DNA of 64,000 bases from NCBI GenBank assembly GCA_965222155.1, contig CBDCTH010000012.1, forward strand, positions 288,001-352,000, written 5' to 3'. The translations under genes were made by a program, and so were the position numbers. The notes below the pieces were generated by a model. It was not told the DNA's origin and did no database searches. It saw only the letters and a list, made by a program, of their open reading frames with translations. Of the stretch, positions 5,061 to 60,600 are shown piece by piece. Position 1 is the stretch's first letter; the number at the start of each line of letters is the position of its first letter. This DNA is from Gammaproteobacteria bacterium. Lineage in GTDB: Bacteria; Pseudomonadota; Gammaproteobacteria; Eutrophobiales; Eutrophobiaceae.

Positions 5061-6179
5061 TCAGTGTTTCGTATTCAGGCATTCAATATTGCGCTTAATC
5101 AACGACTCAATGGCGCGTAATTTCCCCTTTTCATCCCTGGACACGAATGAAATAGCCTGACCGCTGGCGCCCGCCCGGCCGGTACGACCAATACGATGTA
5201 TATAATCTCCCGGCGCCTCGGGCATATCGAAATTGACGACTATAGGCAGTAACTCGATATCGATGCCGCGCGAGGCGATGTCAGTGGCTACCAGCACCTG
5301 TTTTTTGCCCTTCTTGAAATCATCCAGCACCTTGGTGCGTTGTGCCTGAGTTTTATTACTGTGAATTGCAGAGGCGGAGATTGAATTCTTGCCCAGTCGT
5401 TTTACCAGCTTGTCTGCGCCATGCTTGGTGCGGGTAAAAACCAGTATCTGCTCGTGAGTGTCCTGCGCAAGTTCACTCAACAAATTGGCTTTGCGATCCT
5501 TCTCGACCCAGTACAGTTTCTGTGAGATTGCCTCAATTGTCGAGTTACCAGGGGACACGTCTATTTCTATAGGGTTTCTGCAAATCGTGCCGGCCAGTTG
5601 GCGAATCTCCCTGGAGAATGTGGCTGAAAACATCAGGTTCTGTCTGCGCTGTGGAATAAGTTTCAGAATCTTGCGTATGTCCATGATAAAGCCCATATCC
5701 AACATGCGGTCGGCCTCGTCCAGCACCAGCAATTCGATATCGTCAAAGCGGATGGCGTTCTGCTGAAAAAGGTCTAACAAGCGCCCCGGTGTTGCCACCA
5801 GCAGATCGACGCCGCGTCGCAGCGCGCGCAGTTGGGGAGTAATGTTTACTCCGCCGAATACCACCGCTGAAGTGAGTCGTTCATTCTTGCCGTAAGTCAG
5901 AATACTCTGGTGTACCTGGGCCGCCAGTTCCCGTGTCGGCGTCAGGATCAGCGCCCGCGCCCGCCCAGGCTTGGCCTTGGCGCTGGCGCCCAATTGTTGC
6001 AGCATGGGAAGCACAAACCCGGCGGTCTTGCCGGTGCCGGTCTGAGCGGCCGCCATCACGTCGCCGCCGGAAAGAACGGCAGGAATTGCCTGGGCCTGAA
6101 TAGGGGTTGGAGTTGTATAGCCTGTGTGCGCAACTGCGCGCAACAGGGAATCGGATAGTCCGAGTGTCGTAAAAGTCAT
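5061..6179 (-). CDS. rhlE: DEAD-box RNA helicase (RhlE-like)
   Basis: Q motif, AQTGTGKT, PTRELA, DEAD, SAT, HRIGRTGRAG. Short C-terminal tail. Confidence 0.85.
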   Translation of the reverse strand: MTFTTLGLSDSLLRAVAHTGYTTPTPIQAQAIPAVLSGGDVMAAAQTGTGKTAGFVLPMLQQLGASAKAKPGRARALILTPTRELAAQVHQSILTYGKNERLTSAVVFGGVNITPQLRALRRGVDLLVATPGRLLDLFQQNAIRFDDIELLVLDEADRMLDMGFIMDIRKILKLIPQRRQNLMFSATFSREIRQLAGTICRNPIEIDVSPGNSTIEAISQKLYWVEKDRKANLLSELAQDTHEQILVFTRTKHGADKLVKRLGKNSISASAIHSNKTQAQRTKVLDDFKKGKKQVLVATDIASRGIDIELLPIVVNFDMPEAPGDYIHRIGRTGRAGASGQAISFVSRDEKGKLRAIESLIKRNIECLNTKH

Positions 6180-6706
6180 ATATCTCTCTTTAAAAATTTA
6201 TTTTGCAGGCATGTACAGCCCTTCGACTCCGGGATTAGCGAAGCGATTGGCGCTGAATGACCAATGGATGTGTTCCCCGGACGAATGGCGTCTGGTTGCA
6301 CGGGTGTGCAATCGATAGATAATGTTCGGAGTTCGAAACCGCGAATAGATCGGTGACAAAAGCAGAAGAACAGGTAAAGACTCGGAGTCTCAGAGAACTG
6401 CGTTAATTAAAACGCAGAAAAATGACCTTTAGCTAAAGATAACGCACTTGCAGCGAGGTATTACTCAAGCGGCAATAGCCAACTATAGCATGAAATTAAC
6501 TGAATAGTTCAAATAAAATGGAGACAGGGTAAAAATCAAAGACCAAGCCCCTGTTAAGACGAATATCGTCGCGCAGCCGATGGCCTGTTCAATCCCTGCA
6601 CGTGCTGTGGTGACCCAGTCAATTTCCGATTTCACAGTTTCATCCAATCCCAGCAGCGCGTTAACATTACGGTGTTTCATAGAACCGTTCCATGAACGCT
6701 CTTACC

Positions 6707-6735
6707 TTGACAAATAACTATATTTAGACCATATT
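6707..6735 (+). promoter_or_regulatory. Putative sigma70 promoter of the phd-relE pair
   Basis: TTGACA-17 bp-CATATT, about 40 bp upstream of the antitoxin start. Confidence 0.55.
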
Positions 6736-6772
6736 CAGTCATCCTGACGATGACGACTTTATAAGAGTACCC

Positions 6773-7054
6773 ATGATGAAATTATCTGTGCAAATAAAAC
6801 CAATCAGTTATCTCAAGGCTCATGCCGCTGATATCGTCCGCCAACTGAGTGAGCAGAAACAACCCCTTATCATTACACAAAACGGTGAAGCCAAGATTGT
6901 GGTGCAGGACATCAAAAGCTATGAGGAGAATGAAGAGACGCTTGCTTTGCTCAAGATACTCGCTCTTGGCAATAGTCAAATCGAGCAGGATGACATCACC
7001 CCTGCCAAATCAGCGCTGGAGCACATTCGCCTGCGACGTAAACGGAAATCGTAA
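6773..7054 (+). CDS. Phd/YefM family antitoxin
   Basis: IKPISYLKAHA...PLIITQNGEAK. Overlaps the downstream toxin (TAATG). Confidence 0.9.
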   Translation: MMKLSVQIKPISYLKAHAADIVRQLSEQKQPLIITQNGEAKIVVQDIKSYEENEETLALLKILALGNSQIEQDDITPAKSALEHIRLRRKRKS

Positions 7055-7377
7055 TGTACGAGGTCTACCTGACCGATGATGCATTGCGCGACCTTGAGGA
7101 AATTGATGACTACATTGTAGCCGCTGACTCGCCGCAAAGAGCAGAGTATGTTCTCGGTAAGATTGAAGACGCATTTCTCACCCTCTCTCATATGCCGGAG
7201 CGTAGTAACTATCCGGGTGAGTTGTTAACCCTTGGTATTAAAGAATACAGGGAAGTCTTGTTCAAACCCTACCGTATCGTTTATCGTGTACAGGACAAAA
7301 GAGTTTATATTTATTTGATCGCTGACGGGCGCAGGGATATGCAAACCCTGTTAAGCAGGCGCCTGCTGCGGCCTTGA
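7054..7377 (+). CDS. RelE/ParE family toxin
   Basis: YEVYLTDDALRDLEEI...YREV...YRIVY...DGRRD. Translationally coupled to the antitoxin. Confidence 0.9.
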   Translation: MYEVYLTDDALRDLEEIDDYIVAADSPQRAEYVLGKIEDAFLTLSHMPERSNYPGELLTLGIKEYREVLFKPYRIVYRVQDKRVYIYLIADGRRDMQTLLSRRLLRP

Positions 7378-9825: not shown

Positions 9826-10006
9826 TTGTAATATACGGTATGCCGGGTTAGCACCTCAACACAATCATACTCGTCAACCATAGGAAGTCGCATCACCCAC
9901 CAGGGAAAACAGCCCTTAAATGCAGGCCAGCGAACCGCGCACTTATATATTTTTAATATATCTTTTTTGCACTATACTGTGACCTTTGAACAGCGGAGGT
10001 CTCACC

Positions 10007-10276
10007 ATGGCTGTACCAGATAAACAAGACAGGGCAAAAGTCTTCATGTCGGGGCTATCCCAGGCCGTGCGGTTGCCGAAAAAATTTCGTTTCTCAGAAG
10101 GCTGTGATGAGGTAGCCGTGCGCCAGGTCGGACGACATCTGATTTTGAGTCCGCGTTTCACTGACTGGGAAGACTACTGGGCAAACTCGACTCGTCCTGA
10201 CGATGATTTCGCAAGTACGGTATTGGAGCTCCGTGCCAATGATTTACCTGTTGAAGAACGTCAGAGCTTTGACTGA
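10007..10276 (+). CDS. vapB: VapB (AbrB-fold) antitoxin
   Basis: AKVFMSGLSQAVRLPKKFRF; GGAGG RBS. Confidence 0.9.
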   Translation: MAVPDKQDRAKVFMSGLSQAVRLPKKFRFSEGCDEVAVRQVGRHLILSPRFTDWEDYWANSTRPDDDFASTVLELRANDLPVEERQSFD

Positions 10277-10680
10277 TGCAATGTATGCTGGACACAGACC
10301 ATTGCGTGTACCTCATCAGACGTTCGCCGCTGATCACACCGCAAGCGCCAATGAACGACTGTTTTATTTCAGCGATCGTCGCCGGTGAGCTACAGGCTGG
10401 TGTGGCAAAATCGCACGAATCCAGACGCGCACAAAATCGACAAGCTCTGCTCGATTTTTTGAGTGTGGTACGCATTTTGCCGGTCGATGAACAAGTCGTA
10501 GAAACCTATGGCGAGGTACGCGCGCACCTGGAAACGAGTGGCCAAAGAATAGGTCCCCATGATACGTGGATTGCTGCACATGCCCTCGCCCTTGAGTTAC
10601 CCCTCGTGACTAACAACACCCGTGAATTCTCACGGGTGCCTGAACTTGTTATCGATAACTGGCTGCAGAACGAGGGCTGA
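10276..10680 (+). CDS. vapC: VapC PIN-domain toxin
   Basis: MLDTD, GEL, IGPHDTWIAAHA, LVTNNTREF. Confidence 0.9.
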   Translation: MQCMLDTDHCVYLIRRSPLITPQAPMNDCFISAIVAGELQAGVAKSHESRRAQNRQALLDFLSVVRILPVDEQVVETYGEVRAHLETSGQRIGPHDTWIAAHALALELPLVTNNTREFSRVPELVIDNWLQNEG

Positions 10681-10709: not shown

Positions 10710-13700
10710 ATGGCGACAAAATTTTTCACTAATGCAGACAGCAATACCCTACTCAATAAATTGGATGGAGTGTTCAGGCACGGCGCCCACATTGAAGATT
10801 TCGACGCGTTAGTTGGCTATTTTCGCTCCACCGGTTATTTCAAAATTCGCCCCTTTCTGGAAAACGTACCGCAGATTCGGGTATTGGTCGGGATTGATGT
10901 TGATGCACTTACCGCTGTATACAAACACCAGGGGCTGTTATTAGCTACGGATACGAGCGCTGCAAAACAGGACTACCTGGATAGACTCAAGCACGAAATA
11001 GAAGATGCTGACTACTCACGGGACCTGGAACAAAGCATCTTGCAATTCATCACCGACATCGCTACTGGAAAAATTCGGATAAAGGCTCACCCTACACGCA
11101 AACTGCATGCCAAGATTTACATCTTCCGACCCAGAGACTTTAATCCGCACAGCGCCTGTGAAGTAATCACGGGTTCATCGAACCTCACCGATGCCGGTCT
11201 CGGTGTGCAAGACAATGATTCCAATTATGAATTCAATGTATCGCTCAGGGATTACGACGACGTGAAGTTCGCTACCGACGAATTTGAAAAACTCTGGAAG
11301 GAAGCCGTTGATATTCTCCCGGAGGAAGTGGCGGAAGCAAAAGACAAAACATTTCTGAAAGACAACTTCACTCCGTTTGAGCTCTATATCAAACTTCTGA
11401 TTGAATATTTCGGCAAGGAAATTGAATTCGACCCCAATAACATCAAGGATCTGCCGAAAGAATTCATGCGGCTGAATTATCAACTCGACGCAGTGCAACA
11501 GGGACTCAGAATATTAGACGAGCACAGCGGCTTTTTTCTTGCTGACGTGGTAGGGTTGGGCAAAACCATTGTAGCTATACTGATTGCCCGACAGTTTTTC
11601 TATTCCAACAACTACCCGGAATATATATCCAAAACGCTCATCATCATGCCGCCGGCGCTGAAAAGCCAGTGGCAGGATACCGTAAGAAAATTCGGATTCC
11701 AAAATGTGGACTACATCACCAACGGCAGCTTGCACAAGGTTCAACACCCGAGTGAATACGATCTGATTGTTGTGGATGAAGCGCACAAGTTCAGAAACGA
11801 CAGCTCGCTGAGCTACGAAAGGCTGCAACACATCTGCAAAACCCCTTGTCGCGGGGGCAAGACGAAAAAAGTCATCCTGGTGTCCGCTACTCCACTCAAC
11901 AACCGCCCCGATGATATTCGCAATCAGGTATTGTTGTTCCAGGATGCCAATAACAGCACAATGGACATCCATATCGGTAGATTTTTCTCCAAAATCAGTA
12001 AACGCTACAAAGCAATCATCGGAAAAGGCATATCGGGCCCAACCCACGCGAGCAATGAAATATACGCTGAACTACGCGACAAAATCATCGAACCACTGAC
12101 TGTGCGACGCACCCGTACCGACCTGCTCCAGCATGAACTTTACGCGCAGGATTTACAGGAACAGGGTATTCGCTTCCCCGAAGTCGGTGTACCGGAAAAG
12201 CTCCTGTATCCGCTGGAAGCACCCTTGAACCAACTCTATGACGAAACGATAAGACTTATAAAAGGCGACGAAGGGCTGCAATACGTACGTTACCGCGCCA
12301 TAGAATTCATGAAGCCGGAACACCGCAGGGACTACAACCGTCCGGAATTTATTTCCAGCTTGTTGGCAGCGATTATGAAAAGTCTGCTGGTCAAACGCCT
12401 GGACAGTAGTTTTTATGCCTTTCATTGCACCTTGCAACGCTTTGTCGGTGCATCTGAGGCTATGTTAAAGATGGTGGAAAACAACCGCATTATTATCGCG
12501 CCTAATCACCGCGTTGAGGAATATATTCTGGAAGGCAATGAGGATGAACTACTGGAGAAACTGTCTGTAGAACAGTTAACCGACCCGAACATCAAGCTCC
12601 TCTCAAGGGATGATTTTGCTCCCGGGTTTATTGAAGGACTGAAAAGCGACCATAAAATCCTGACCGACATGCAGCAGGAGTGGCAGAAAGTGGTTGAGGA
12701 CGAAGAAGACCCGAAACTGGACAAATTTCTATCTGTTCTGGAAACGGAACTGTTGACAAAAAGCCGGAATCCGGAACAGAAACTGGTGATCTTCTCGGAG
12801 TCACTGGACACCACGAATTATCTGACGAAAAAGCTCAAGTTAAAGCAATATGAAAACATCTTGTCGGTCAATTCTACAAACAGAGACCAACTGCGAGACA
12901 GGATCAGACAAAACTTTGACGCCAACATCCCCTTGATACAACAAAGCTCCGATTACAATATCATCATCACTACTGAAGTGTTGGCTGAAGGAGTGAACCT
13001 ACACCGTGCCAATACCATTTTGAATTACGATACACCTTGGAATTCTACCCGTCTGATGCAGCGCATCGGACGTATCAACCGTATCGGCGCCAAAGCAGAT
13101 AAAATCTATATATACAATTTCTTCCCCACGGAGAAAGTGGAAGATGATATCCAACTGCAACACAAGGCAATCGTGAAGCTACAGGCATTTCACTCGACGC
13201 TTGGAGAGGATTCACAAATCTATTCGACCGATGAGCAGGTAGAAACTTTTGGTTTGTTTGATGAACAGCCACAGGGTGACATTGAAGCCAATGAACGTTT
13301 GCAATACCTGATGGAGGTTCGTAAATTCAGGGAAGAGTCCCCGGAAGAATTTCGACGAATCAGGAACCTGCCGCTCAAAATCCGCAATGCAGTGAAAAAC
13401 AGAGAACGCCAAAATGGCACCATAACCTATCTGCGCAACAAAGGACGACACCATGCCTTCTATGCCGTGGACCAGCAGAATGAAATCGCTGAACTTGGCT
13501 TCCTGCAAGCAGTACCAATTTTCAAATGTGACCGGACTATCAAGGCACAGGCTCTGCACGAACAACACCACGCGCAGGTGCAACAGGCGATAGCAGATTT
13601 TCGACGACAGACAGAAGAAAAAATCGTGATCGAACAGCAAAACCAGGCCCTCACACCACAACAAACGCGAGCGGTCCGCTATATGAAGGCAATACACGCA

Positions 13701-13991
13701 TTGCCACACATCGGTGAGCAGGAAAAACAAGCCATCACCCAGGCTATTGAGACAATAAAACTTGGGCGCTTCCAGGCTTTGGAACGGGACGTGAACAAAC
13801 TGCAAAGAAACGCGAAGCGCTTATCCCTTACCAACGAAGTTCAACTACGATCTCTACTGGAAATCTTACATAAGCACATACCCAAAGTTGAAGATACCCA
13901 TGCACGTGATGAACAAAACACTGGCGGCAATCTGTCAACCGCAACAGTGGACGATCAGCCCAGAGTCATTATTTCCCAGTCTTATGTTTAA
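10710..13991 (+). CDS. Phospholipase D-like nuclease + SNF2/SF2 helicase
   Basis: LHAKIY...GSSNLT...EFN (PLD), ADVVGLGKT, DEAH, SATP, EGVNL...PWNSTRLMQRIGRINR. Confidence 0.9.
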   Translation: MATKFFTNADSNTLLNKLDGVFRHGAHIEDFDALVGYFRSTGYFKIRPFLENVPQIRVLVGIDVDALTAVYKHQGLLLATDTSAAKQDYLDRLKHEIEDADYSRDLEQSILQFITDIATGKIRIKAHPTRKLHAKIYIFRPRDFNPHSACEVITGSSNLTDAGLGVQDNDSNYEFNVSLRDYDDVKFATDEFEKLWKEAVDILPEEVAEAKDKTFLKDNFTPFELYIKLLIEYFGKEIEFDPNNIKDLPKEFMRLNYQLDAVQQGLRILDEHSGFFLADVVGLGKTIVAILIARQFFYSNNYPEYISKTLIIMPPALKSQWQDTVRKFGFQNVDYITNGSLHKVQHPSEYDLIVVDEAHKFRNDSSLSYERLQHICKTPCRGGKTKKVILVSATPLNNRPDDIRNQVLLFQDANNSTMDIHIGRFFSKISKRYKAIIGKGISGPTHASNEIYAELRDKIIEPLTVRRTRTDLLQHELYAQDLQEQGIRFPEVGVPEKLLYPLEAPLNQLYDETIRLIKGDEGLQYVRYRAIEFMKPEHRRDYNRPEFISSLLAAIMKSLLVKRLDSSFYAFHCTLQRFVGASEAMLKMVENNRIIIAPNHRVEEYILEGNEDELLEKLSVEQLTDPNIKLLSRDDFAPGFIEGLKSDHKILTDMQQEWQKVVEDEEDPKLDKFLSVLETELLTKSRNPEQKLVIFSESLDTTNYLTKKLKLKQYENILSVNSTNRDQLRDRIRQNFDANIPLIQQSSDYNIIITTEVLAEGVNLHRANTILNYDTPWNSTRLMQRIGRINRIGAKADKIYIYNFFPTEKVEDDIQLQHKAIVKLQAFHSTLGEDSQIYSTDEQVETFGLFDEQPQGDIEANERLQYLMEVRKFREESPEEFRRIRNLPLKIRNAVKNRERQNGTITYLRNKGRHHAFYAVDQQNEIAELGFLQAVPIFKCDRTIKAQALHEQHHAQVQQAIADFRRQTEEKIVIEQQNQALTPQQTRAVRYMKAIHALPHIGEQEKQAITQAIETIKLGRFQALERDVNKLQRNAKRLSLTNEVQLRSLLEILHKHIPKVEDTHARDEQNTGGNLSTATVDDQPRVIISQSYV

Positions 13992-14062
13992 GACCTGATG
14001 TATACTGAAAAACTAGCGTCTATCCGACAAAATAAGGTTAAAATCACCCAAAGAGGAGAAAA

Positions 14063-14272
14063 ATGATGAAATCGAAACAAAAACCTCTCATTTGCAAGCG
14101 TGAGCAAGAACGTAGCGCCATGCTGGAAGAGGCACTGGCTCGGCCAGGTGTACGCGAAGTCATGAAAATCTATGGTCAATGGCAAAGAAAAGATCGGGGA
14201 CTTGAGTCCTATAGGGCAGCGACGGCAGAACTTTTCCAGATAAGTACCACAGATCACACAAACGTTCGATAA
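14063..14272 (+). CDS. Hypothetical 69-aa protein
   Basis: Strong AGAGGAG RBS; fills the gap between the helicase and protease genes on the same strand. Confidence 0.65.
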   Translation: MMKSKQKPLICKREQERSAMLEEALARPGVREVMKIYGQWQRKDRGLESYRAATAELFQISTTDHTNVR

Positions 14273-14296
14273 ATGATTTAAGGAAAGAGTAACCCC

Positions 14297-15283
14297 ATGC
14301 CTATTTGGAGTGAAATCCTTGCCGAGCTTGGGGAGACCAGCGCCCACAATAATGGTACTCCTGACTTTGATGCTGTTCGGCGGACATATCTGACGAGACT
14401 ATATCAATATACTGGGCGCAATGTTATTTTATATGCTTCGGGATGGCTGCAAAAGGAGCAGGTACCGGGGGTCACTGTTTCTATTAACGACGAAGATATT
14501 CAGGCGCTCATGGAAGTCATCCAAGGTTTGGAAGGCTCTAAGCTTGACTTAATACTGCATAGTCCGGGTGGTTCTCTCGAGGCAACGGAAGCGATTGTGT
14601 CTTATCTGCGCTCACGGTTTTCTGATATCCGGGTAATCGTGCCGCAACTAGCGATGTCCGCGGCAACTATGATTGCCTGTGCTGCTGATTATATCGTGCT
14701 TGGTAGACATTCTTTTCTCGGGCCGACGGATCCACAAATTCTCATTTCAACTCCACTAGGCATACGCCAAGTTGCTGCTCAGGCAATTCTGGACCAATTC
14801 GACAAGGCACAACGCGAATGTGAAAACCCAGCAAAGTTATCAGCTTGGTTGCCAATGCTGAACCAATACGGCCCTGACCTGCTTGAGCTGTGCGAAAAAG
14901 CCTTAGATATGTCCAAGAATCTTGTAAAGACATGGCTGGAAATATACATGTTCAAGGGAGAGTCTGATAGTTCAAAACAGGCAGAACAGATTTCCAATTG
15001 GCTTGCTGACCATCAGCATTTCAAGAGCCATAATCGACATATATCGCGAGATGAGCTTCAAAAACGACAATTAAAAATACTGCAATTGGAAGATGATGAA
15101 AACCTGCAAGACCTGAGTCTTTCGGTATTCCATGCCACAACTCACACATTTACCGGTACTCAAGCGGCAAAGATCGTGGAAAATCACACGGGTCGCGCAT
15201 TCGTCAAACATTATTTCATCCAACCAGCGCAAGGAATTCAGATGAGTCTTGAGCCTGTTCCACTAGTTCAGGGCGACCAATGA
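14297..15283 (+). CDS. SDH-family ClpP-class serine protease
   Basis: LHSPGGS, AMSAATMIA (Ser), LGPTDPQ (Asp), KSHNRHI (His). Confidence 0.85.
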   Translation: MPIWSEILAELGETSAHNNGTPDFDAVRRTYLTRLYQYTGRNVILYASGWLQKEQVPGVTVSINDEDIQALMEVIQGLEGSKLDLILHSPGGSLEATEAIVSYLRSRFSDIRVIVPQLAMSAATMIACAADYIVLGRHSFLGPTDPQILISTPLGIRQVAAQAILDQFDKAQRECENPAKLSAWLPMLNQYGPDLLELCEKALDMSKNLVKTWLEIYMFKGESDSSKQAEQISNWLADHQHFKSHNRHISRDELQKRQLKILQLEDDENLQDLSLSVFHATTHTFTGTQAAKIVENHTGRAFVKHYFIQPAQGIQMSLEPVPLVQGDQ

Positions 15284-15364
15284 CATGAAGCCGTAATTAT
15301 CAGTTCCCCAATACAGTTTCGGCAACCGCCGATAACGACATAAGAATAAAAACCAAACGACTCA

Positions 15365-18300
15365 ATGATGGCAACCGCAGATGCTCTAAGAAATCTTTTC
15401 GAGCAGGTATACCAGCGCGATGAATGGCTCAAGATACTTGCTGAAACACTATCGATAGACCGATTTTTACGACCGATATCAATCAAAGGGGATACGGAAT
15501 CATTTTATCAGTTGGGTAAAGTCACTCTCACTGATAACAAGGAACTGGGGATCTATGAAATAAAAACAAAGCCCCGGACCCAGCTACATCGAAACCGGGT
15601 ACAAATGCGCCACCTGGTGGCAAAACATTGTCGTCAATTCGCTCTTGACGGCGCACTTGCTGTTTATTACGACGACCTGGATCAATGGCGTTTCAGCTTT
15701 ATCAGCATGGAATACCAATTGAATAAACAGGGTGAGTTAAACAGAAAGGAAAGTACATCCAAACGCTTTACCTATCTGCTGGGGAAAGACACAAAAGTTC
15801 GCACTGCGGTGACACGGTTCAGCCATCTGGACAAATCTGCCACACTGGATAACCTGAAAACCACATTCGCGGTGGAACAACTAAACAAGGAATTCTATGA
15901 AAAACTGTTCCGTTGGTACGAAAATGCAAAAACACAGGTCGTTTTCCCCAATGATGAGCATGTGGACAAAGGTAAACATCACTCCATCAGTTTAATCCGT
16001 CTGTTAACTCGACTGTTGTTCGTCTGGTTCATCAAGGAAAAAAAACTGGTTAACCCGGACTTTTTTGAACTTGATAAAGCCAGAAAAATCATCATCTGGG
16101 ACAAAGACAGTAGTTACTACAAGGCCATATTGCAAAATCTGTTCTTTGCGACACTCAACCGGGAAATCACAGACCGAAGCTTTCGCACAACCAGAAACGG
16201 CAAACCAAGTGGCGATAACTATCTGGTTACCAATATCTACCGTTATCAGAATTTATTCTTGCAAAAGAACGAAGATGAAATCCTGAAACTGTTTGAACAA
16301 ACGCCATTTCTCAACGGTGGGCTGTTTGAATGCCTGGACAGAGAATCAACGAATGAAGAAAAAGCCGCCTATGATAAAAACAAGAATATACGCATCGGTA
16401 AAAGCGCGATCCGTATCGATGGCTTTTCCGACCGGGACGACAATCCGTTATACGTGCCAAACGAACTGTTTTTCAACGATGATGAAGATAGTCCTGGATT
16501 GATTCAATTGCTTACACAATATCAATTCACTGTGGAAGAAAGTACCCCACTGGATGCAGATGTGGCATTAGACCCGGAGTTGATGGGACTGATCTTTGAA
16601 AATCTGCTGGCGTCCTATAACCCGGAAACGCAGCAAACCGCCCGCAAGGCCTCAGGCTCCTACTACACCCCCCGTGCGATTGTTAGCTATATGGTGGATG
16701 AAAGCCTGAAGGCCTATCTGGCCCAGACTGTGTCCCCCCGTGACGGAGATGTGGAATTCTACCATGAACGTTTGAATGATCTGTTTGATACCTTATCGCA
16801 GACCGGCGAATTGAATAGCGAAAATGGAGAGCATCTTCTCTATGATGAAGAGATCCCCAGGCTGCTGGAGGCAGTAGAGCGGATAAAGATATTGGACCCG
16901 GCCGTGGGCAGTGGTGCTTTCCCAATGGGTATTCTGCAACGGTTGGTACAGATACTCGGTTTGATTGATCCGGAAAATGAACAATGGAAACAGCGGCAGG
17001 TCGACATTGTTTCTCAAATGGATGACTCTGAAAGTCGTACGCAGGTGCTTCAGGATATCGAAGAAATATTCAGTGAGAAAAACCGCTTTAACGATTTTGG
17101 ACGTAAACTGTATTTGATTGAAAATGCCATTCATGGCGTGGACATTCAGTCTATCGCCTGTCAGATTGCCAAGCTGCGCTTTTTCATCTCCCTAGTGATT
17201 GAGCAGAAGCCAAACGACAACTTAGACGACAACTATGGCATCCGTCCATTACCGAATCTAGAAACCCGGTTTATAGCAGCAGACAGTTTGTTGAGTCTGG
17301 ATGAGCCCAAACAACGGAGCATCCGCAATCTGGAGATTGATAGCAAGGAACAAGAACTGCGAAGAGTCCGTCAGAACCATTTCAACGCCAAAACACTACG
17401 AACTAAACGGACATATCGTTGCAAAGACAGAAAGTTGCGACTAATGATCGCAGAGTTGTTGGTGAATGACGGCTGGAACGACACAAATGCAAAGAAAATC
17501 GCCGATTGGGACCCCTATGATCAGAATGCGGCCGCCACCGACTGGTTTCATGCCGAGTATATGTTTGGCGTGACTGATGGCTTCAATGTGGTGATTGGCA
17601 ATCCGCCGTATATCCAGTTGCAGAACAACGAGGGGGCACTGGGACGGCTATACCAAAGCGCTGGCTTTGCTGCCTTCGCCCGCGCGGGCGACATTTACTG
17701 CCTGTTTTATGAGAAAGGCATCGAACTGTTGAAAGAAAACGGCCACCTGTGCTACATCACCTCCAACAAGTGGATGCGAGCCAAATATGGTGAGAAGCTA
17801 CGCGAGTTTTTCGTTGAAAAGACTAACCCTATGAAATTACTTGATTTCGGTGGCTTTAAGGTCTTTGAGAATGCCACTGTAGATACCAATATCCTGCTTA
17901 TCCAGAAGACAAAACCGATGGTTCAACTGCTGGCTACGAGCTTCAAAAACGACTTTCACAAGGGAGAAAGTATCGGCAACTACGCAGAACGCAATGCGGT
18001 TTCCGTCAACGTGACGCGCGACACTTGGTTTATCGGTAGCCGCGCCGAAGTAGCTTTGAAAGAGAAAATCGAATGCATAGGCACCCCCCTGAAAGACTGG
18101 GATATAGCCATTAACTATGGAATTAAAACCGGTTTTAACGACGCCTTTATCATTGATAATGCAACTAAGAAAGCATTGATTAAGGAAGATCCAAAATCGG
18201 CTGAGTTGATCAAACCGATTTTAAGAGGCAGGGATATTCAAAGATATCGAGCTAATTGGGCGGGGAAATGGTTGATTGATGTACATAATGGATATGGAGA

Positions 18301-18850
18301 TATTCCGCCAATTGATATTCGTTGCTACAAAGCTGTTAAAAAACACCTGAATAAATTCTATTGCCAATTGGAAAAACGTCAGGACCAAGGGGTCACGCCA
18401 TATAATCTTCGTAATTGCGCTTATCACGCAGAATTTGAGCGCAACAAAATCGTTTGGGGCAACCTATCTGTTCAGCCAAGGTTCGCTGTAGATAATGATT
18501 CTAGTCTTATATCAGCACCGACCAATCTTCTTACCGGGACAAACCACATCAAATATATCGCAGGCGTGCTCAACAGCCAGTTCTGTTATTGGGGTATGAG
18601 ACAGTTAGCGTATAGTAGGGAACAAGGGTACATGGAATACAAAAAAACCTTTGTAGAACAACTACCTGTCCCTAGAGAAACATGCCAAAATTACCCACTG
18701 ATAACTCAAATAGGAAATCTGGTGGATCAAATCCTGATCGCCAAAAAGAAAAATTCTGGCACCGCCAAACTTGAAAATCAGATAGACGCACTTGTTTATC
18801 AGCTTTACGAGCTAACAGCGGATGAAATTAACGCCATATCAAATATTTAA
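15365..18850 (+). CDS. Type IIG/Eco57I-like N6-adenine DNA methyltransferase with C-terminal TaqI-like specificity domain
   Basis: FLNGGLF, GSYYTP, ILDPAVGSGAF, IGNPPY, YGIKTG, PILRGRDI, C-terminal IDALVYQLYELT. Confidence 0.9.
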   Translation: MMATADALRNLFEQVYQRDEWLKILAETLSIDRFLRPISIKGDTESFYQLGKVTLTDNKELGIYEIKTKPRTQLHRNRVQMRHLVAKHCRQFALDGALAVYYDDLDQWRFSFISMEYQLNKQGELNRKESTSKRFTYLLGKDTKVRTAVTRFSHLDKSATLDNLKTTFAVEQLNKEFYEKLFRWYENAKTQVVFPNDEHVDKGKHHSISLIRLLTRLLFVWFIKEKKLVNPDFFELDKARKIIIWDKDSSYYKAILQNLFFATLNREITDRSFRTTRNGKPSGDNYLVTNIYRYQNLFLQKNEDEILKLFEQTPFLNGGLFECLDRESTNEEKAAYDKNKNIRIGKSAIRIDGFSDRDDNPLYVPNELFFNDDEDSPGLIQLLTQYQFTVEESTPLDADVALDPELMGLIFENLLASYNPETQQTARKASGSYYTPRAIVSYMVDESLKAYLAQTVSPRDGDVEFYHERLNDLFDTLSQTGELNSENGEHLLYDEEIPRLLEAVERIKILDPAVGSGAFPMGILQRLVQILGLIDPENEQWKQRQVDIVSQMDDSESRTQVLQDIEEIFSEKNRFNDFGRKLYLIENAIHGVDIQSIACQIAKLRFFISLVIEQKPNDNLDDNYGIRPLPNLETRFIAADSLLSLDEPKQRSIRNLEIDSKEQELRRVRQNHFNAKTLRTKRTYRCKDRKLRLMIAELLVNDGWNDTNAKKIADWDPYDQNAAATDWFHAEYMFGVTDGFNVVIGNPPYIQLQNNEGALGRLYQSAGFAAFARAGDIYCLFYEKGIELLKENGHLCYITSNKWMRAKYGEKLREFFVEKTNPMKLLDFGGFKVFENATVDTNILLIQKTKPMVQLLATSFKNDFHKGESIGNYAERNAVSVNVTRDTWFIGSRAEVALKEKIECIGTPLKDWDIAINYGIKTGFNDAFIIDNATKKALIKEDPKSAELIKPILRGRDIQRYRANWAGKWLIDVHNGYGDIPPIDIRCYKAVKKHLNKFYCQLEKRQDQGVTPYNLRNCAYHAEFERNKIVWGNLSVQPRFAVDNDSSLISAPTNLLTGTNHIKYIAGVLNSQFCYWGMRQLAYSREQGYMEYKKTFVEQLPVPRETCQNYPLITQIGNLVDQILIAKKKNSGTAKLENQIDALVYQLYELTADEINAISNI

Positions 18851-19234: not shown

Positions 19235-20527
19235 GGGGTTTGATCGAATTTAAGTTTCCAACTTTATCGAGGGTGCAATTCATAGTTCCACTCGCCGTGG
19301 AACTCATTGCGATGTAGTGACAACCCCTCCATCTCCGCGTTCGTCGCCGTCACGCCTTTCGGGTATTTTCCCGTGTCGAGTTCGGCTCTGACCCGAAGCC
19401 CTGCGTCGGTGCGTGTATTGCCAATCAAGTCGACAATGGTTTCAAAGGTCCGCAGCGGCTTGCCGCGCCAATTCTGCGTGATGTGACAGAACAGCCGATG
19501 CTCAATCCTGTTCCACTTGCTGGTGCCAGGCGGGAAATGGCTGACGTGGATGCGCACCCCCGTCTCGTCGGCAAACTGCTGCAGCCCGTGCTTCCACGCA
19601 CGGGCGCGATACCCGTTGCTGCCACCCGCATCGGCGGTGATGAACAGGGCACTCGCCTCGGGGTAACGGCGCTGGCCCATCGCCGCCCACCAGCGCCGCA
19701 GCGAGGCCACCGCGAAGGCCGGCGTATCGTGGTCACACCCGACACTGACCCAGGCTTCGTTGCCGCCCATGTCATAAATGCCGTAGGGTATCGCCTTGCC
19801 GGCCGCGTCCTGCGGGAAGTCATGCACCAGCGCTTGCTCGGGCTGCCCCTGCGGCTGCCACTCCCGGCCCGCATTCTTGAAATCCCCCACCAATTCCTTC
19901 TTCTTGGTATCGACCGACACCACCGGCTGGCCGCGCCGCAGAAAGTCCCCCGCCTGCGCGTTGATATGCTCGAACTGTGCGTTGCGGTCCGGGTGTGAGG
20001 TCCCTTCCCGGCTCTTGCGCACCGATTGCAGCCGATAGCCCAGCTCGTGCAACAACCGCCCCACCGACGTCGAACTCACCGTCCAGCCCGCCTGCGACAG
20101 CGCCGCGGCAAGCTTCGCCCGACTCTTGCACGTCCACCGCAACGGCGACTGCGGGTCGCCGCGCGTCACCGGGTCGACCAGCTGCTCCAGCGCACGCTTG
20201 ATACCCGGCTGCGACTGCTCAATGCCCGGCCGTCCCGCCCCCGGACGGCGAACCCGACCGCGCGCGGCGCCACCCGCTGCCAGCTCCCGGCGCCCCTTGC
20301 GCACCGTCGGACGCGACAGGCCGGTCGCATCCGACACCAGCGCATCGCCCCCATACCCGATGGCACGCGACTCCGTGGCCGCCCAGATACGACGCCCGCG
20401 CTCATCGAGATGCGCCTCGACCGCCGCGTACTTCTCCACGATTGTTGCTTCAAGTTCAAGATTGCGTCTCATCGGGAGATTGAAACACAAAAACCTGAAG
20501 ATGGCAATTTAATTTAGGACAGTATCC
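19235..20527 (-). mobile_element. ISAzo13-family insertion sequence (1293 bp)
   Basis: Imperfect IRs GGGGTTTGATCGAATTTAAGTTTCC and revcomp GGATACTGTCCTAAATTAAATTGCC. Visibly GC-richer than its flanks. Confidence 0.85.
19264..20472 (-). CDS. ISAzo13-family DDE transposase
   Basis: LDERGRRIWAA, RGDPQSPLRWTCKS, HPDRNAQF, SVDTKKKE, TADAGGSN, PGTSKWNRIEHRLF, FHGEWNY. Confidence 0.95.
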   Translation of the reverse strand: MRRNLELEATIVEKYAAVEAHLDERGRRIWAATESRAIGYGGDALVSDATGLSRPTVRKGRRELAAGGAARGRVRRPGAGRPGIEQSQPGIKRALEQLVDPVTRGDPQSPLRWTCKSRAKLAAALSQAGWTVSSTSVGRLLHELGYRLQSVRKSREGTSHPDRNAQFEHINAQAGDFLRRGQPVVSVDTKKKELVGDFKNAGREWQPQGQPEQALVHDFPQDAAGKAIPYGIYDMGGNEAWVSVGCDHDTPAFAVASLRRWWAAMGQRRYPEASALFITADAGGSNGYRARAWKHGLQQFADETGVRIHVSHFPPGTSKWNRIEHRLFCHITQNWRGKPLRTFETIVDLIGNTRTDAGLRVRAELDTGKYPKGVTATNAEMEGLSLHRNEFHGEWNYELHPR

Positions 20528-20528
20528 T

Positions 20529-22019
20529 AAGAACAATCCCAATTGTATCGACTCAACGGGTTTTAACCACCAGTACCAGGATTGGGAAGATGTATATGGT
20601 AACCTGGAATTCAAGGAGAATGTTGACCTGTGGGGGACTTCATTCAGGGCGGAATGGGACCTGGATGCATTCACGCTGGTATCGGTCACCGCTTACGAGG
20701 AGTTTGAAGTGGAATTCTCTGAGGATTCGGATTCCAGTCCCAATACCGGCTTTCAGTTCTACCAGGATGCTGAATATGAGCAATGGTCCCAGGAATTGCG
20801 ACTGCAATCCGCCTCAGACCAGGCCTTGCGCTGGATAGCCGGATTTTACTGGTTTTTCGAGGAGGGGAAATACGCAACCGCAGTGCGCAGGACTCCGGCG
20901 GAGTTTGCGCCCGCAGGCCCGAGGAACTTCAATATCGTCCCGAATACCCGGGTTACCCAGGACAACGAAGTCTATTCCGTATACGGCCAGGTTGAATACG
21001 ACATGCAGTCCAACCTGACGGCCACTGCCGGCCTGAGATGGACCAAGGAATCCAAAAAAGGGTTAAACCAGCCTTCAGTACGCTGTGTTGGTAGCGTCGG
21101 CGGACCGCCGTTCTGCCCTGCCGCGGGCGCCAGTTTCTTCTTCGGCCTTGACGAGGTGCCCAATTTGCCGGGCTTGTTCGTGCCACCGCCCGAGGTTCTT
21201 GATTATGATTCGACGGATTGGGGAGCCAGGTTTGCGCTTGACTGGCAGGCCACCGATGACATGTTGTTATACGGTAGCATATCGCGCGGCTTCAAGGGTG
21301 GCGGATTCAGTCTGGCTGCCTTGGCGGCATTGACCGGCGGCGCCGCTCAAAGTGTGCAACCGGAAATCTTATGGGCCTATGAAATAGGCGCCAAGACATC
21401 ATGGCTGGATAATACATTGCAGTTGAACGCCGCGTTTTTCTATTATGACTGGTCAGACCTGCAATCATTTGAGGTATTTGTTGAGCCGACAGAAGCGTGC
21501 CTTTTCGCCTGCTTGATCAATATACCTGAGGCCAGCTTGAAGGGCGGGGAAGTGGAACTGCAATGGGCGCCGGCCGGGGGCTGGCTGTTGCTGGCAGGCG
21601 TCGGGTTGAGTGATGGTAAAATTGATGATGCGGGGAACATACCTGGCACCAGAAAAGGTAATGAGCTGACGAATACACCCGACCTTACATTCAATGGGCT
21701 GGTTCGAAAAGAATTTACCATGTCGGGCGGCACACTCGCCTTACAAACAAGCTGGTGGTATAAGGACGAGGTCTATTATGGCCTTGCCAATGTGCCAAAC
21801 CTGAGTCAACCGGAAGGTATCTGGAATCTCGATGCACGCGCCTCATTCCGGTTTGGTCCCGGTGAGCGTTATGAGGTGGCTGCCTGGGGTAAGAACCTGA
21901 ACGGTGAGGAATACTGCCGGGGGATGACGAGTCTCCAGGGCCTGGTCGAATCCAACCTGTGCCTACCCAGCTTATCTGAACCTACTTACGGAATCACAGC
22001 TGCAATAAGGTTTGAATAA
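20529..22019 (+). pseudogene. TonB-dependent receptor, 5'-truncated (no signal peptide or plug)
   Basis: The frame is open from the IS end (KNNPNCIDSTG...). SRGFKGGG, YEIGAK, WGKNL, C-terminal IRFE. Confidence 0.85.
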
Positions 22020-56876: not shown

Positions 56877-57170
56877 ATGCGTGACAGTATCAATTTGCTT
56901 GGATTGCTTCTTTTCCCCGGTACCCTGCGCGCCGAATTTGATATCGGCACGACTGGAGGGCCGCTGGATTTTATCACTACCGCGTTTCAGACGGCGGTGG
57001 ATTTTTTGACGGGGCCGGCGGCGCTGGCCTTCCTGGTCGGCTCCGTTGTCGTGGGCGGCGTAATGTGGGCTTATGCGCCCAAGAGTGGCGCTCTTGGCAT
57101 TGTATTCCGGGCGATCATGGTGTTGCTGGTTATCTTCAACCTGTCTCTGGTTGTCAATAATCTGAAGTGA
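56877..57170 (+). CDS. VirB2/TrbC-like conjugative pilin
   Basis: Signal peptide, DFLTGPAA motif, two hydrophobic helices; AGGAG RBS. Confidence 0.75.
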   Translation: MRDSINLLGLLLFPGTLRAEFDIGTTGGPLDFITTAFQTAVDFLTGPAALAFLVGSVVVGGVMWAYAPKSGALGIVFRAIMVLLVIFNLSLVVNNLK

Positions 57171-57188
57171 TGCAGGGCGTATGAGAAC

Positions 57189-57358
57189 CAGGCGCTCCCG
57201 CTAAATCGAGGTCAATACAGTTTAAGACAAGGGGGACAGATTTAAATCTATCCCCTGGGAGTCTGACCATAAGGGGGCCTGTTTCCCTGGGAGGGAGGGC
57301 GTCTCGCCCGCCACGAGGGCAGGATGCCCTCGGTCCCGGGAGTTAGCGGGAACTGCTG
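57189..57358 (+). mobile_element. MITE family B copy, inverted relative to 56289..56442, containing a GGGGAC palindrome
   Basis: Same TIRs and interior; no target duplication in its flanks. Confidence 0.85.
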
Positions 57359-57619
57359 CCGTGAAGATGGAGCGTCTGCGACTCATGGTTTCACCAGCCG
57401 TCTCACAACGCTGTATGAGCAATTGAACAAAGCTTCCTTCGTAGCGGCACTTGTCGACGGCCAGGAGGCCAATATCGAACTGGCCAACGAATTGCAGCAG
57501 GCCGGCGCCGGCACAGGTTTGTCTCATAGGTACTGAACCCGGACAAGAGGGGGTTGACATTGCATGAAGCAGTGGGGTAGGGTATGCCGACTGTGATTAG
57601 AGGATGGATGACCATAACA

Positions 57620-60600
57620 ATGAATAGGCACGCCCGCCTGTCTTACGGGAGAGAGTTCGGAACGTCCTGCGGTGCTGACTCGCTGACGCATCGTCTGTGC
57701 GGCGTCCTGCGCCCATTCTCCTTTACCCCCCCCCCCCCCCCCCCCACATGAGATAACGAATCGCCGGTGCGGCGCTGCCGCTTCGCCGCGTGCGCGGGTA
57801 GCGGGCGTTCGCGGGGGGTCGACCGCAGCGGGGCTTTCCAGGCGGTTCCGGCGCGGGGTCCTGTGCGCCCTGGCGCTCGTGACGCTGATGTGCGGTCTGG
57901 CCGCGCCCGCGGCGGCGCAGGTGCCGGCGGCGCCGGAGGGGCTCGGCACCATGGGTACCGGCGACGGAGTTGTCACCCTGGTCTGGAGTAACCCGGGCGA
58001 CGCGAACATCATCGGGTATCAGTACCAGCATAAGGTCGGGTCGGACGCCTGGGGCTTGTGGACCAACATCCCGAGCAGCGGCCCGACCACGACGTCATAC
58101 ACCTTCACGGGACTGGCCAATTTCGTGGTACACTCTCTCCGGATCCGGGCGGTGAACGCCGCCGGTGCGAGTCAACCTAGCATCATCAAGACTGCTCAGC
58201 CGTTCGGCCAGCTGCCTGCGCCGACGGGTCTCACGGCGACGCCGGGCGACAGCGAGGTCAAGCTGCGCTGGACAATGCCGAGCGGCGCGTGGATCGACGA
58301 TGTCTATGGCTATCAATATCAGAAGAAAGAGGGGTCGAGCGGCGCCTGGGAAGCCTGGACGAAGAGTTCCGGAGTTCTGAACCTGTCCACGACGCACACT
58401 GTCACCGGTCTGACCAACGGCACGACTTATTACTTCAAAGTCCGGGCGATGGGTATTTCAGACTCCGGCCTGGGGTCTAACGTGGCGTCGGCGACGCCGA
58501 TCGCCGCCCAGTGGCCTGACACCCCCGATGCCCCGATACTCATCCCCGGTGACAGCGAGATCGCGGTGTCATGGACCGCCCCGGCGGCCAACCGCGCGTC
58601 CATCAGCGACTACGACGTGCGCTACCGGGCAGGCAACTCCGGCCCCTGGACGAACTGGGATGCGTCCACCACGAGCACGGCGCTGAGCACGGTCATCACC
58701 AGCCTGACCAACGGCCAGCGCTACCAGGTGCAGGTGCGGGCGACGAACCGCGTGGGCCCGTCAGACTGGTCGGCCAGCGCCCGCGCCACGCCGGTGGCCG
58801 CGCCCGCGGCGCCCGCGCGCCCGACCCTTATACCCGGTGACCGGCAAATCCAGGTGTCCTGGAATGCGCCGACCGACACCGGCGGCGCGGCCATCACCGG
58901 CTACGACATCAGGCTGCGGCGCCCCTCGGACGGCCTGGTGTTGAGCCAGGCCAACACCAGCAGCGGCACCAGCTATACATTTACAGGCCTGACCAACGGC
59001 CAGTCCTACCAGGTGCAGGTGCGGGCTGCGAACAAGAACGGAGACGGCGGCTGGTCGCCCAGCGCCAGCGCCACGCCCGTGGCGACGCCGGGCAAGCCGA
59101 CTGCGCTGACGGTCACCGTGCTGGGCGCCACCTCACTGCGGGTGAGCTGGACGGCGCCGACCAACACGGGCGGCAGTGCCATCACCGGCTACACGCTGCG
59201 GCGCAGTGCGGACAACGGGTTAATCTGGATGGCGTTGCCGGATGTCGCGGGGCCCGGGATGAGCAGGACGGTGACGGGTCTGACGCCGGGGGTCGCGTAT
59301 GTGTTCCAGGTACGGGCAACCAATGCGGCGGGGAACGGGGATTGGTCGGACGCCTCATCGCCGGCTACCCCCTCGGCGGCGCCGGCTGCGCCCGACGCCC
59401 CGACCCTTACCCCCGGCAATCAGCAGCTCGGGGTGGTATGGAGCGCGCCGGACGCCAACGGCGCGGACATCAGCGACTACGACGTGCGCTACAAGCTGAG
59501 CACCGTCACCGGCTGGACGGACGCCCACTACAACGGCACCGACACCAGCACGACCCTCGACGGTCTGACCAACGGCCAGCGCTACCAGGTGCAGGTGCGG
59601 GCGATAAACGTGCAGGGCCCCGGCGGCTGGTCGGACTTCGCCAGCGCCACGCCGGCCACCACTGCTACGGTGCCCGCCGCGCCGGCCGGTCCCGACGCTC
59701 GCCCCCGGCAACGGCAGGATAGTGGTGTCGTGGGCTGCGCCGACGAGCAACGGTGGCGCCCCTATCACCGGCTACAACGTACAGTACAGGCGGAGCAGCG
59801 ACACCGCTTGGACGGACGCCCACTATGATGGCACCGGCACCAGCACGACCCTCGATGGCCTCACCAACGGCCAGGACTACCAGGTGCAGGTACAGGCCGT
59901 GAACGCGCAGGGCGCGAGCGACTGGTCGGCCAGCGCCCCGGACACGCCGCCGGCAGCCCCGTCCCCGGCCGTGCCGCCCACCCTCCTCGTGACACGGGGC
60001 GACACCAGGGTGACGTTGCACTGGGGGAGCGTGAGCGATGCTACCATTACCCGCTGGGAGTACCGGCAGAAGGCGGGCGCGGGCGATTACGAGGACTGGA
60101 CCGGGATTCCCGGCAGCGCCGCGGACACGAGAGACCACGAGGTCACCGGCCTGAGCAACGGCACGCGCTACACCTTCCAGGTGCGGGCGCTGAGGGGGGG
60201 CGTGCCCGGTGCCGCCTCCAACGAGGCCAGCGCCACGCCGACACCGCCCTTGGCGCAGCCGACGGACTTCACCGCCACCCCCGGCGATAGCCAGGTCATT
60301 CTGCGTTGGGCCGGCCCCAGCGACCCCAACATCGTCAGTTGGGAGTACCGGCAGAAGGCGGCGGACAATTACGGGGGCTGGGCCGAGATTGCCGGCAGCA
60401 ACGCGACCACGAGAACGCATACGGTCACCGGCCTGAAGAACGGCACGCGCTACACCTTCCGGGTGCGGGCGCTGAGCGGGGCCGTGCCCGGCCCCGTCTC
60501 CGCCGAGGCCTCGGCCACGCCGACCGCCCAGAAGCCCGACGCGCCGGGGACGCCGAGCGGCCCGGCGCTGAGCGACGTCAAGGCGACGCCGTCAACCATC

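Follow-up and report, generated by a model that had tools for sequence, protein, structure and literature searches.

A gene for a 69-residue protein and a gene for an SDH-type serine protease with a ClpP fold lie side by side between the helicase and the methyltransferase gene of a two-gene restriction-like system in a 64,000-nucleotide (nt) stretch of contig CBDCTH010000012.1 (the whole stretch is called the window, and coordinates count from its first letter). The comparisons reported here identify the two genes as an obligate pair, which has been inserted in this locus and is found elsewhere among mostly unrelated neighbours. A sequence-only reading of the same DNA had described four co-oriented, closely spaced genes with a strong ribosome-binding site ahead of the small one, and this layout is confirmed by open reading frame (ORF) calls and Pfam matches: all four genes are on the same strand, with intergenic gaps of 71, 24 and 81 nt, and the small gene has its box a short distance ahead of the start codon (Table 1).

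Table 1. Position of the cassette, of the genes on either side of it and of the features at the borders of the island
Feature	Coordinates	Strand	Evidence or remark
HKD(PLD)-nuclease/SNF2 helicase, 1093 aa	10710..13991	+	Pfam and PADLOC; restriction arm of the restriction-like system (two genes) that hosts the cassette
Small partner protein, 69 aa	14063..14272	+	No family match; conserved 5′ of the protease
SDH-type ClpP-fold serine protease, 328 aa	14297..15283	+	PF01972
Eco57I/PglX-like N6-adenine methyltransferase with TaqI_C specificity domain, 1161 aa	15365..18850	+	Modification arm
Shine-Dalgarno box GAGGAG of the small gene	14053..14058	+	4 nt ahead of the ATG
MazE/AbrB-like antitoxin and PIN toxin (VapBC-type)	9986..10680	+	Directly upstream of the island
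ISAZ013-family DDE transposase	19264..20490	-	Downstream edge of the low-GC block

The helicase gene matches the Pfam domains PLDc_2 (1.5e-7), SNF2-rel_dom (2.5e-15) and Helicase_C (2e-17), as well as the PADLOC family C3a139 'HKD+Snf2' (1.2e-46). The methylase gene matches Eco57I (2.3e-39) and TaqI_C (4.5e-14) in Pfam and, over residues 577–1124 only, the PADLOC family REase_MTase_IIG (3.4e-140); its NCBIfam match to BREX-1 PglX (1.7e-20) is far under the cut-off of that model. The GC content is 0.42–0.47 across ~11–19 kb, compared with 0.55–0.60 alongside. A scan for promoters and terminators over 10.4–19.3 kb returned sites no more numerous than in shuffled sequence, and the cassette is probably co-transcribed with the flanking helicase and methylase genes.

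Relatives of the window helicase were found at 44 metagenome loci (loci are designated by L numbers throughout), and neither the small gene nor the protease gene is present at any of them. A methylase homologue follows the helicase relative on the same strand in 23 of the 44, at a distance of ~20–30 nt in L086, L090, L093 and L095, in keeping with the earlier expectation that PLD-helicase and Eco57I-like methylase genes usually lie adjacent. Because the helicase relatives carry the methylase contiguously and never the cassette, the cassette in the window is an insertion at the helicase–methylase junction, and the pair is indeed, as had been supposed, embedded inside a helicase–methylase operon. 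At L088 the same slot between the homologous helicase and methylase is occupied by a different gene (5696–7159), which encodes a 487-residue protein with SLFN_AlbA_2 and HATPase_c_4 domains. Since the cassette is absent from all 44 loci, 23 are contiguous and L088 holds another gene there, the canonical system is a contiguous helicase–methylase pair, and its junction is marked as a slot that accepts, and may serve for the exchange of, accessory defence genes. A larger protein with SLFN_AlbA_2 and HATPase_c_4 domains is also encoded after the protease at L038. Among 400 other genomes of the same phylum, none gave a match to the window helicase at E ≤ 1e-50.

The small protein and the protease

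The protease matches PF01972 (SDH_protease) at 4.3e-17 with 62.5 bits (cut-off 31.3), above its score against the Pfam family CLP_protease (4e-7, 30.5 bits), and reaches 23 bits against the NCBIfam ClpP subfamily model, for which the cut-off is 228. Its nearest Atlas clusters are 98–100% PF01972, and phrog_11747 is matched over the full length (2e-89). Generic or unannotated families are all that the protease meets in PADLOC-DB 2.0.0, NCBIfam and PHROGs, and PADLOC-DB 2.0.0 holds no model for it or for the small gene; a profile search against the sequences of solved structures likewise returned nothing significant for the protease. The AlphaFold2 model (predicted local distance difference test, pLDDT, 93.6) consists of a ClpP-fold core and an extra helical C-terminal domain. 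The neighbours of this model in a fold search were ClpP (7eko_B, Z 13.4, root-mean-square deviation 3.9 with 180 residues aligned), 1510-N (2deo_A, Z 11.5) and SppA (4kwb_A, Z 11.4), and Foldseek also returned ClpP (2fzs_F, E 5e-4). Among predicted viral structures, the nearest are giant-virus 'serine dehydrogenase proteinases' (TM 0.55–0.70).

The core contains the oxyanion motif HSPGG (88–92), the nucleophile Ser121 within AMSAAT, and Asp145, and the helical C-terminal domain bears His245 and His279. In 73 protease sequences His88, Pro90, Gly91, Gly92, Ser121, Asp145, His245, His279 and a few other positions are invariant; three further histidines of the C-terminal domain (His248, His283 and His297) are conserved in at least 90% of the sequences, and the five C-terminal histidines may point to a metal site. 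The offset of the CLP_protease alignment, read together with known ClpP motifs, leads us to infer that Asp145 is placed where ClpP has its histidine, which would fit the Ser-Asp-His order behind the family name. Fold and invariant residues argue for a catalytically competent enzyme with a predicted Ser121/Asp145/His triad. No transmembrane-like segment was seen apart from the buried helix bearing the active-site serine. In combination, the PF01972 match, the invariant residues and the lack of a membrane segment uphold the earlier description of a soluble SDH protease with intact Ser/Asp/His motifs. The window protease thus shares with ClpP, SppA and 1510-N the fold, the nucleophile serine and the oxyanion motif; it differs from them in having neither an AAA+ partner nor a membrane anchor, and in its additional C-terminal helical domain with invariant histidines. 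As for the ClpP family (S14) itself, fold and nucleophile serine agree, whereas sequence membership and, on the inferred placement of Asp145, the Ser-His-Asp order do not.

Relatives of the protease at E ≤ 1e-3 number 4038, the best 120 of which are all 65–80% identical, and proteases of different phyla share 52–80% identity. Some copies have an interrupted reading frame. In L049, L051, L052 and L072 the protease frame is split or shifted, its second half forming a separate ORF cluster at +1, and in L055 it is broken, with two tblastn pieces of the protease and a shortened small ORF. These split or truncated proteases may reflect decay of the copies or mistakes in the assemblies.

The small protein has a basic N-terminus, a helix-RPG-helix core (ALARPGVREVMKIY) and a Ser/Thr/Asn-rich C-terminal tail (ISTTDHTNVR), and the consensus of its family repeats this plan, with a variable basic N-terminus, the core ALxRPGVREVMxVYxxW and the tail ITTT[DN][HS][AS]N. 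Serine, threonine and asparagine together account for 40% of the final 14 residues of the small proteins, compared with 13% of the remainder. In the AlphaFold2 model (pLDDT 77) residues 12–26, 30–46 and 48–54 are helical and form a long helical hairpin, and the tail is coil. Neither the sequence nor the model leads to a known family: Pfam, PADLOC-DB 2.0.0, NCBIfam and PHROGs gave no family match, the fold search gave no meaningful structural neighbour (best Z 4.2), and a profile search against the sequences of solved structures gave nothing significant, the best hit (E 0.27, a nuclease) being taken as chance. No DNA-binding, helix-turn-helix (HTH) or ribbon-helix-helix (RHH) signature was seen in Pfam, NCBIfam or the structural model. 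A profile search of 1.84 billion proteins returned 607 representatives of the family at E ≤ 1e-3, nearly all of them stand-alone proteins of 60–100 residues. Ratios of non-synonymous to synonymous substitution (dN/dS) were computable for 15 of 17 pairs tried and fell between 0.04 and 0.37 in 13 of these; the other two, very close pairs, gave 0.58 and 1.01. These sequence comparisons indicate that the small gene is under purifying selection, and the recurrence of a homologue immediately 5′ of the protease from locus to locus shows that it is a real gene.

This pairing was followed through 80 loci, one genome per species, which do not sample the family at random, having been found by two peptide patterns. 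They belong to Pseudomonadota, Acidobacteriota, Gemmatimonadota, Latescibacterota, Binatota, Poribacteria, Chloroflexota, Bdellovibrionota, Planctomycetota and other phyla. With tblastn, 65 of the 80 loci showed a homologue of the small ORF directly 5′ of the protease and co-oriented with it; a profile built from 72 of these loci and the window found it in all 80 (E 5e-5 to 1e-35). The spacing between the two genes is typically ~24 nt, which is also the value in the window. The small protein and the protease are thus an obligate pair, and the conserved upstream small ORF on which the sequence-only reading had staked its case is present throughout.

The two proteins have complementary charges, with isoelectric points (pI) of 9.8 for the small protein (family median 9.3) and 5.4 for the protease. 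Prediction of their complex returned 'weak support', with a score of 0.53 compared with 0.02 for the best control; at least 80% of the contacts recur between runs, and the partner has a pLDDT of at least 59. Among 157 solved complexes and 215 mismatched pairs, 116 and 2, respectively, attain the pass mark, counts that hold roughly because self-built alignments were used here, and passes scoring ≤ 0.60 comprise only 18 of the 157 solved complexes together with both of the mismatched pairs that passed. The model therefore lends weak support to binding of the protease by the small protein. The earlier proposal that the small protein is an inhibitor, adaptor or pro-toxin substrate of the protease is accordingly supported as regards the partnership, by the obligate pairing and the weak modelled binding.

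In the 110-nt stretches 5′ of the small gene at 45 loci nothing common was seen by eye beyond a GGAG-type box, and neither a conserved operator nor a repeat was found there by the same inspection, no formal motif search having been made; related cassettes cease to resemble each other around the Shine-Dalgarno box (Table 1). Three near-identical cassettes (L010, L015 and L017), labelled as belonging to different phyla, have ~110 nt of upstream DNA in common, with an imperfect palindrome around CATG, which could be a subclade-specific operator or recombination site.

Neighbours and carriers of the cassette

The genes around the cassette were compared at 79 of the loci (L071, at a contig edge, was dropped), with ORFs called by a crude greedy caller. 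The cassette often lies in variable islands, and the 1231 neighbouring ORFs fall into clusters that are mostly singletons. The neighbours that do recur are a DUF1156 methylase at 13 loci, a HEPN-DUF499 ATPase at 10 and SNF2 helicases of the HKD or NOV_C kind at 7. When the nearest ORF of at least 110 residues on each side was scanned with Pfam at E ≤ 1e-8 and labelled by hand (157 proteins), a restriction, defence, toxin-antitoxin or transposase-integrase gene was the nearest flank at 30 of the 79 loci (13/40 and 17/39), and 81 of the 157 proteins had no match. The defence context that the earlier reading looked for among the homologues is thus seen in part, at these 30 loci, and qualified by copies in prophage slots and between housekeeping genes.

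A repeated feature of these surroundings is the position ahead of methylase genes. The cassette lies directly 5′ of a same-strand Eco57I-type methylase in the window, in L056 and in L054 (with one M78 gene between in L054), and directly 5′ of a same-strand DUF1156/Hma methylase in L012, L018, L022, L048, L053, L077 and L002 (with an 82-residue ORF between in L002); the gap between protease and methylase is 18–33 nt in L012, L018 and L048. In the methylase ORF cluster, 7 of the 14 members are at +1 of the protease and 2 at +2. A recognisable methylase is present within 10 kb at about 17 of the 79 loci and directly downstream at 9. DUF1156 matches in the genomes of L001–L050 total 116; they are spread over 30 of the 50, with no genome holding more than 10. 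A DUF1156 methylase occurs in the cassette locus in 8 of the 50 where 0.51 would be expected (P 7e-8), and directly downstream of the cassette in 5 of the 50 where 0.018 would be expected (P 2e-11). The cassette is thus strongly over-represented immediately 5′ of genes for DNA methyltransferases of two unrelated kinds, Eco57I-like and DUF1156. Conversely, a cassette accompanies only 8 of the 116 DUF1156 genes, so that it belongs to these systems as an occasional accessory and is no core component of them. Pairwise identities of protease and methylase correlate (r 0.74 over 55 non-independent pairs), so the association is partly co-inherited, and there were perhaps about five to seven independent events that brought cassette and methylase together.

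A DUF1156 methylase, a DUF499 ATPase and a helicase-nuclease are described as parts of the related Hma, Gao_RL, MANTIS and BREX-related type 1 systems (10.64898/2026.09.23.753747; PMC12839542). Systems of the Hma/MANTIS kind are the commonest recurrent host of the cassette, as judged from the methylase cluster (13 loci) and the DUF499 cluster (10 loci), and the genes of L002 match the PADLOC families HmaA, HmaB and HmaC with E = 0. The host system of the window is different: neither a DUF499 ATPase nor a DUF1156 methylase was found among its scanned genes, and its methylase is of the Eco57I/TaqI_C type. Because it has no DUF499 ATPase and an Eco57I-type methylase, it is not Hma. The number of DUF1156 genes in the L001–L050 genomes suggests a massive expansion of Hma/MANTIS-like systems in these uncultivated lineages.

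The phylogeny of the protease follows neither hosts nor neighbours. Taxonomy is ignored in the protease tree and the context labels are scattered over it; the MANTIS label requires 10 changes, of which well-supported branches force no fewer than 4, compared with a mean of 10.5 for shuffled labels. The pair thus travels between phyla independently of its neighbours. Full-length relatives of the protease with 39–54% identity are carried by phages, in accessory slots of temperate phages. In a Klebsiella lambdoid prophage the protease lies in the nin region, preceded at 13 nt by a homologue of the small protein (E 2e-9); the DNA of this cassette found no match in an E. coli genome collection. Further relatives are present in a Shewanella Mu-like phage, in Gordonia phage BeeGee and in five Porphyromonas phages. 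A circular element of P. aeruginosa has the protease beside an integrase, abutted by an unannotated small ORF with a TTVTTNT tail. A more distant variant occurs in a lambdoid region borne on an E. coli IncI2 plasmid (L130, 3357–4430), where a 300-residue SDH-type protease and a 56-residue ORF come directly after a cI-like repressor, in what we take to be the place of rexAB in lambda; here the small ORF is downstream of the protease, the reverse of the order in the window.

Readings of the cassette's role

The sequence-only reading had regarded the architecture as one without a name, which is probably wrong, as the combination of a small hypothetical protein with an SDH protease matches the DefenseFinder name FS_HP_SDH_sah. 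The older name of PF01972 is presumably SDH_sah. The system name FS_HP_SDH_sah, which appears in PMC13532340, would by its wording denote a small hypothetical protein with a PF01972 protein, and it is PF01972 that the window protease matches. The window cassette differs in being chromosomal, inside a restriction-like operon and in an uncultivated lineage. The system reportedly goes back to the study of phage-inducible chromosomal islands by Fillol-Salom et al. (2022, Cell 185:3248); its reported carriage on phage satellites has its parallel in the prophages and phages that hold full-length relatives of the window protease. The pair in the window thus probably belongs to this catalogued type of anti-phage module.

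The reading that we prefer, with confidence that goes no further than an even balance, is that the cassette is an autonomous mobile anti-phage or abortive module of the FS_HP_SDH_sah kind, which forms an accessory layer in an HKD-SNF2/methylase operon, the small protein being the binding partner that gates or directs the protease. Put together from sequence and structural models, the proposed course of events would be as follows. The basic small protein would bind the acidic protease via its helical hairpin and present its conserved Ser/Thr/Asn tail to the active site, and so placed it would serve as pseudo-substrate, latent inhibitor or specificity adaptor. On infection the protease, with its predicted Ser121/Asp145/His triad, would be set free or redirected; it would then cleave host or phage proteins, so that phage growth stops. 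The module may in this way provide a second, restriction-independent layer for the operon around it. Its position 5′ of methylase genes could reflect either a permissive accessory slot or selection for co-expression with methylation-based systems. The mechanism of protease-based anti-phage modules is poorly understood, and this cassette is compact (~1.2 kb), very widespread and unusually conserved across phyla, with the invariant RPG hairpin and the Ser/Thr/Asn tail of the small protein as experimental handles. The repeated placement ahead of methylases in unrelated restriction-like systems leads to a testable hypothesis of layered immunity, and the methylase-proximal position is the part worth pursuing.

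Several points weigh against this reading. The likeness to FS_HP_SDH_sah is one of name and of PF01972 membership, and we know of no experiment on this protease subfamily. The binding prediction is a weak pass for which no interface was reported. The 80 loci are mostly metagenome-assembled genomes, and the census of contexts is rough because so many of the flanks (81 of 157) are unmatched and the ORF calling was crude. Some flanks are housekeeping genes: PCuAC/SCO1 in L010 and L015, glyoxalase/PEMT in L074 and L076, and SmpB in L032 and L055, the upstream and distal neighbours of L078 being the same as those of L074 and L076. Copies between such ordinary genes are as compatible with a cassette that is selfish as with one that serves defence.

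PrrC, an anticodon nuclease, is embedded in the EcoprrI type I restriction operon and physically held by the restriction enzyme. Like the window cassette, its gene is that of an unrelated effector within a restriction-modification operon; the difference is that PrrC is a nuclease, and the cassette a protease pair that occurs mostly without restriction genes. The cassette could by analogy be a dedicated guard of methylation-dependent restriction, which monitors the methylase or helicase, or senses anti-restriction proteins, and then fires the protease. This is unlikely. The position directly upstream of a same-strand methylase in the window and nine further loci, the DUF1156 enrichment and the short protease–methylase gaps speak for it, but some 60 of the 79 loci have no recognisable methylase within 10 kb, the cassette accompanies few of the DUF1156 genes, and the association is in part co-inherited. 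The phage-borne copies have no adjacent methylase, and a PrrC-like obligate tie to a restriction system is thus not seen. Moreover, unrelated genes are hosted in the same slot, as would be the case at a permissive insertion site: in addition to the gene in L088, M78-HTH genes are found there in L027 and L054. In particular, a physical guard of the window's own restriction complex is unlikely because the neighbours of the cassette are mostly unrelated, copies occur in prophages and between housekeeping genes, and the context labels are scattered over the tree. The earlier claim that the pair guards the restriction-modification complex is therefore not supported in so far as it ties the pair to one system, and survives as a possible functional back-up.

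A bolder and distinctly unlikely form of the back-up idea is that SDH-protease cassettes are exchangeable back-ups for methylation-based helicase-nuclease immunity, in Hma/MANTIS as well as HKD-SNF2/Eco57I-like systems. The cassettes would stand 5′ of the methylase gene in order to be co-expressed with it, and the basic small protein would act as bait, whose capture by anti-restriction proteins would free the protease. If this were true, the bait would be targeted by acidic DNA mimics or methylase inhibitors, and the protease would kill the infected cell or destroy a phage protein. A literature search, from which subscription journals were mostly outside coverage, gave no account of an SDH-protease cassette in restriction operons, and the main text of PMC12839542 names no ClpP, SDH or serine protease among the auxiliary effectors.

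Quite improbable is a selfish addiction module devoid of an anti-phage role, with a small protein to neutralise a toxic protease, post-segregational killing to maintain the pair and variable regions for it to hitch-hike in. The layout resembles that of a type II toxin-antitoxin system, with the small gene upstream of the larger one, tight linkage (24 nt) and co-inheritance (80/80 loci), and promiscuous transfer, copies between housekeeping genes and the seemingly decaying copies described above would all be in character. However, the small protein has no recognisable DNA-binding domain (none in Pfam or NCBIfam, best Z 4.2 in the fold search), and no conserved operator was seen by eye upstream. 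The high identity of the proteases in the best 120 matches suggests a conserved target over mere toxicity, and prophage accessory slots and defence operons fit a benefit to the host.

A regulatory switch can be envisaged after CapH/CapP and ImmR/ImmA, which are pairs of an M78 metallopeptidase and an HTH repressor: the small protein would act as repressor, the protease would cleave it under stress, and expression of the methylase or defence genes would rise. In these pairs, as in the window, a small protein and a protease stand at the 5′ edge of defence or mobile operons, and the M78-HTH genes of L027 and L054 occupy the same slot as the cassette, which is itself co-oriented with and immediately 5′ of methylase genes; the small protein is, in addition, basic. 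The window pair differs in having a ClpP-fold serine protease and a small protein with no HTH match. The switch is nevertheless very improbable, since neither HTH nor RHH signature accompanies the modelled helical hairpin, the upstream DNA is not conserved and many copies have no obvious target operon. Extremely improbable is a peptide-maturation pair, with the small protein as precursor and the protease as the enzyme that frees or processes its tail to yield an active peptide: the conservation and composition of the tail, the leader-like helical N-terminal part and the precedent of 1510-N, a structural neighbour of the protease that is encoded beside its dedicated substrate, a stomatin homologue, are in its favour, but no recurrent modifying enzyme, exporter or immunity gene was found nearby, and the contexts are defence islands and prophages.

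Other features of the window

The island is bordered on both sides by features of other kinds (Table 1). The VapBC-type pair immediately precedes the helicase gene and consists of a MazE-like ORF of 96 residues, with a MazE_antitoxin match at 0.0029 that is under the cut-off, and a PIN ORF of 134 residues (3.4e-17), the two overlapping by 1 base. The transposase at the other border matches DDE_Tnp_ISAZ013 in Pfam (2.1e-140). It adjoins a TonB-dependent receptor ORF that matches positions 95–436 only of its profile (19264–22019 for the two together), and the receptor gene may have been cut by insertion of this element. Towards the end of the window the GC content jumps to 0.62–0.71 (57000–64000), compared with ~0.46–0.57 elsewhere; given this abrupt rise and the contamination of 7.28% reported for the assembly, the segment could be a foreign island or a mis-join. 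A second toxin-antitoxin pair lies upstream of the island at 6773–7377, where a Phd/YefM-type antitoxin (93 residues, PF02604, 1.5e-13) is followed, with a 1-base overlap, by a ParE toxin (107 residues, PF05016, 7.5e-18).

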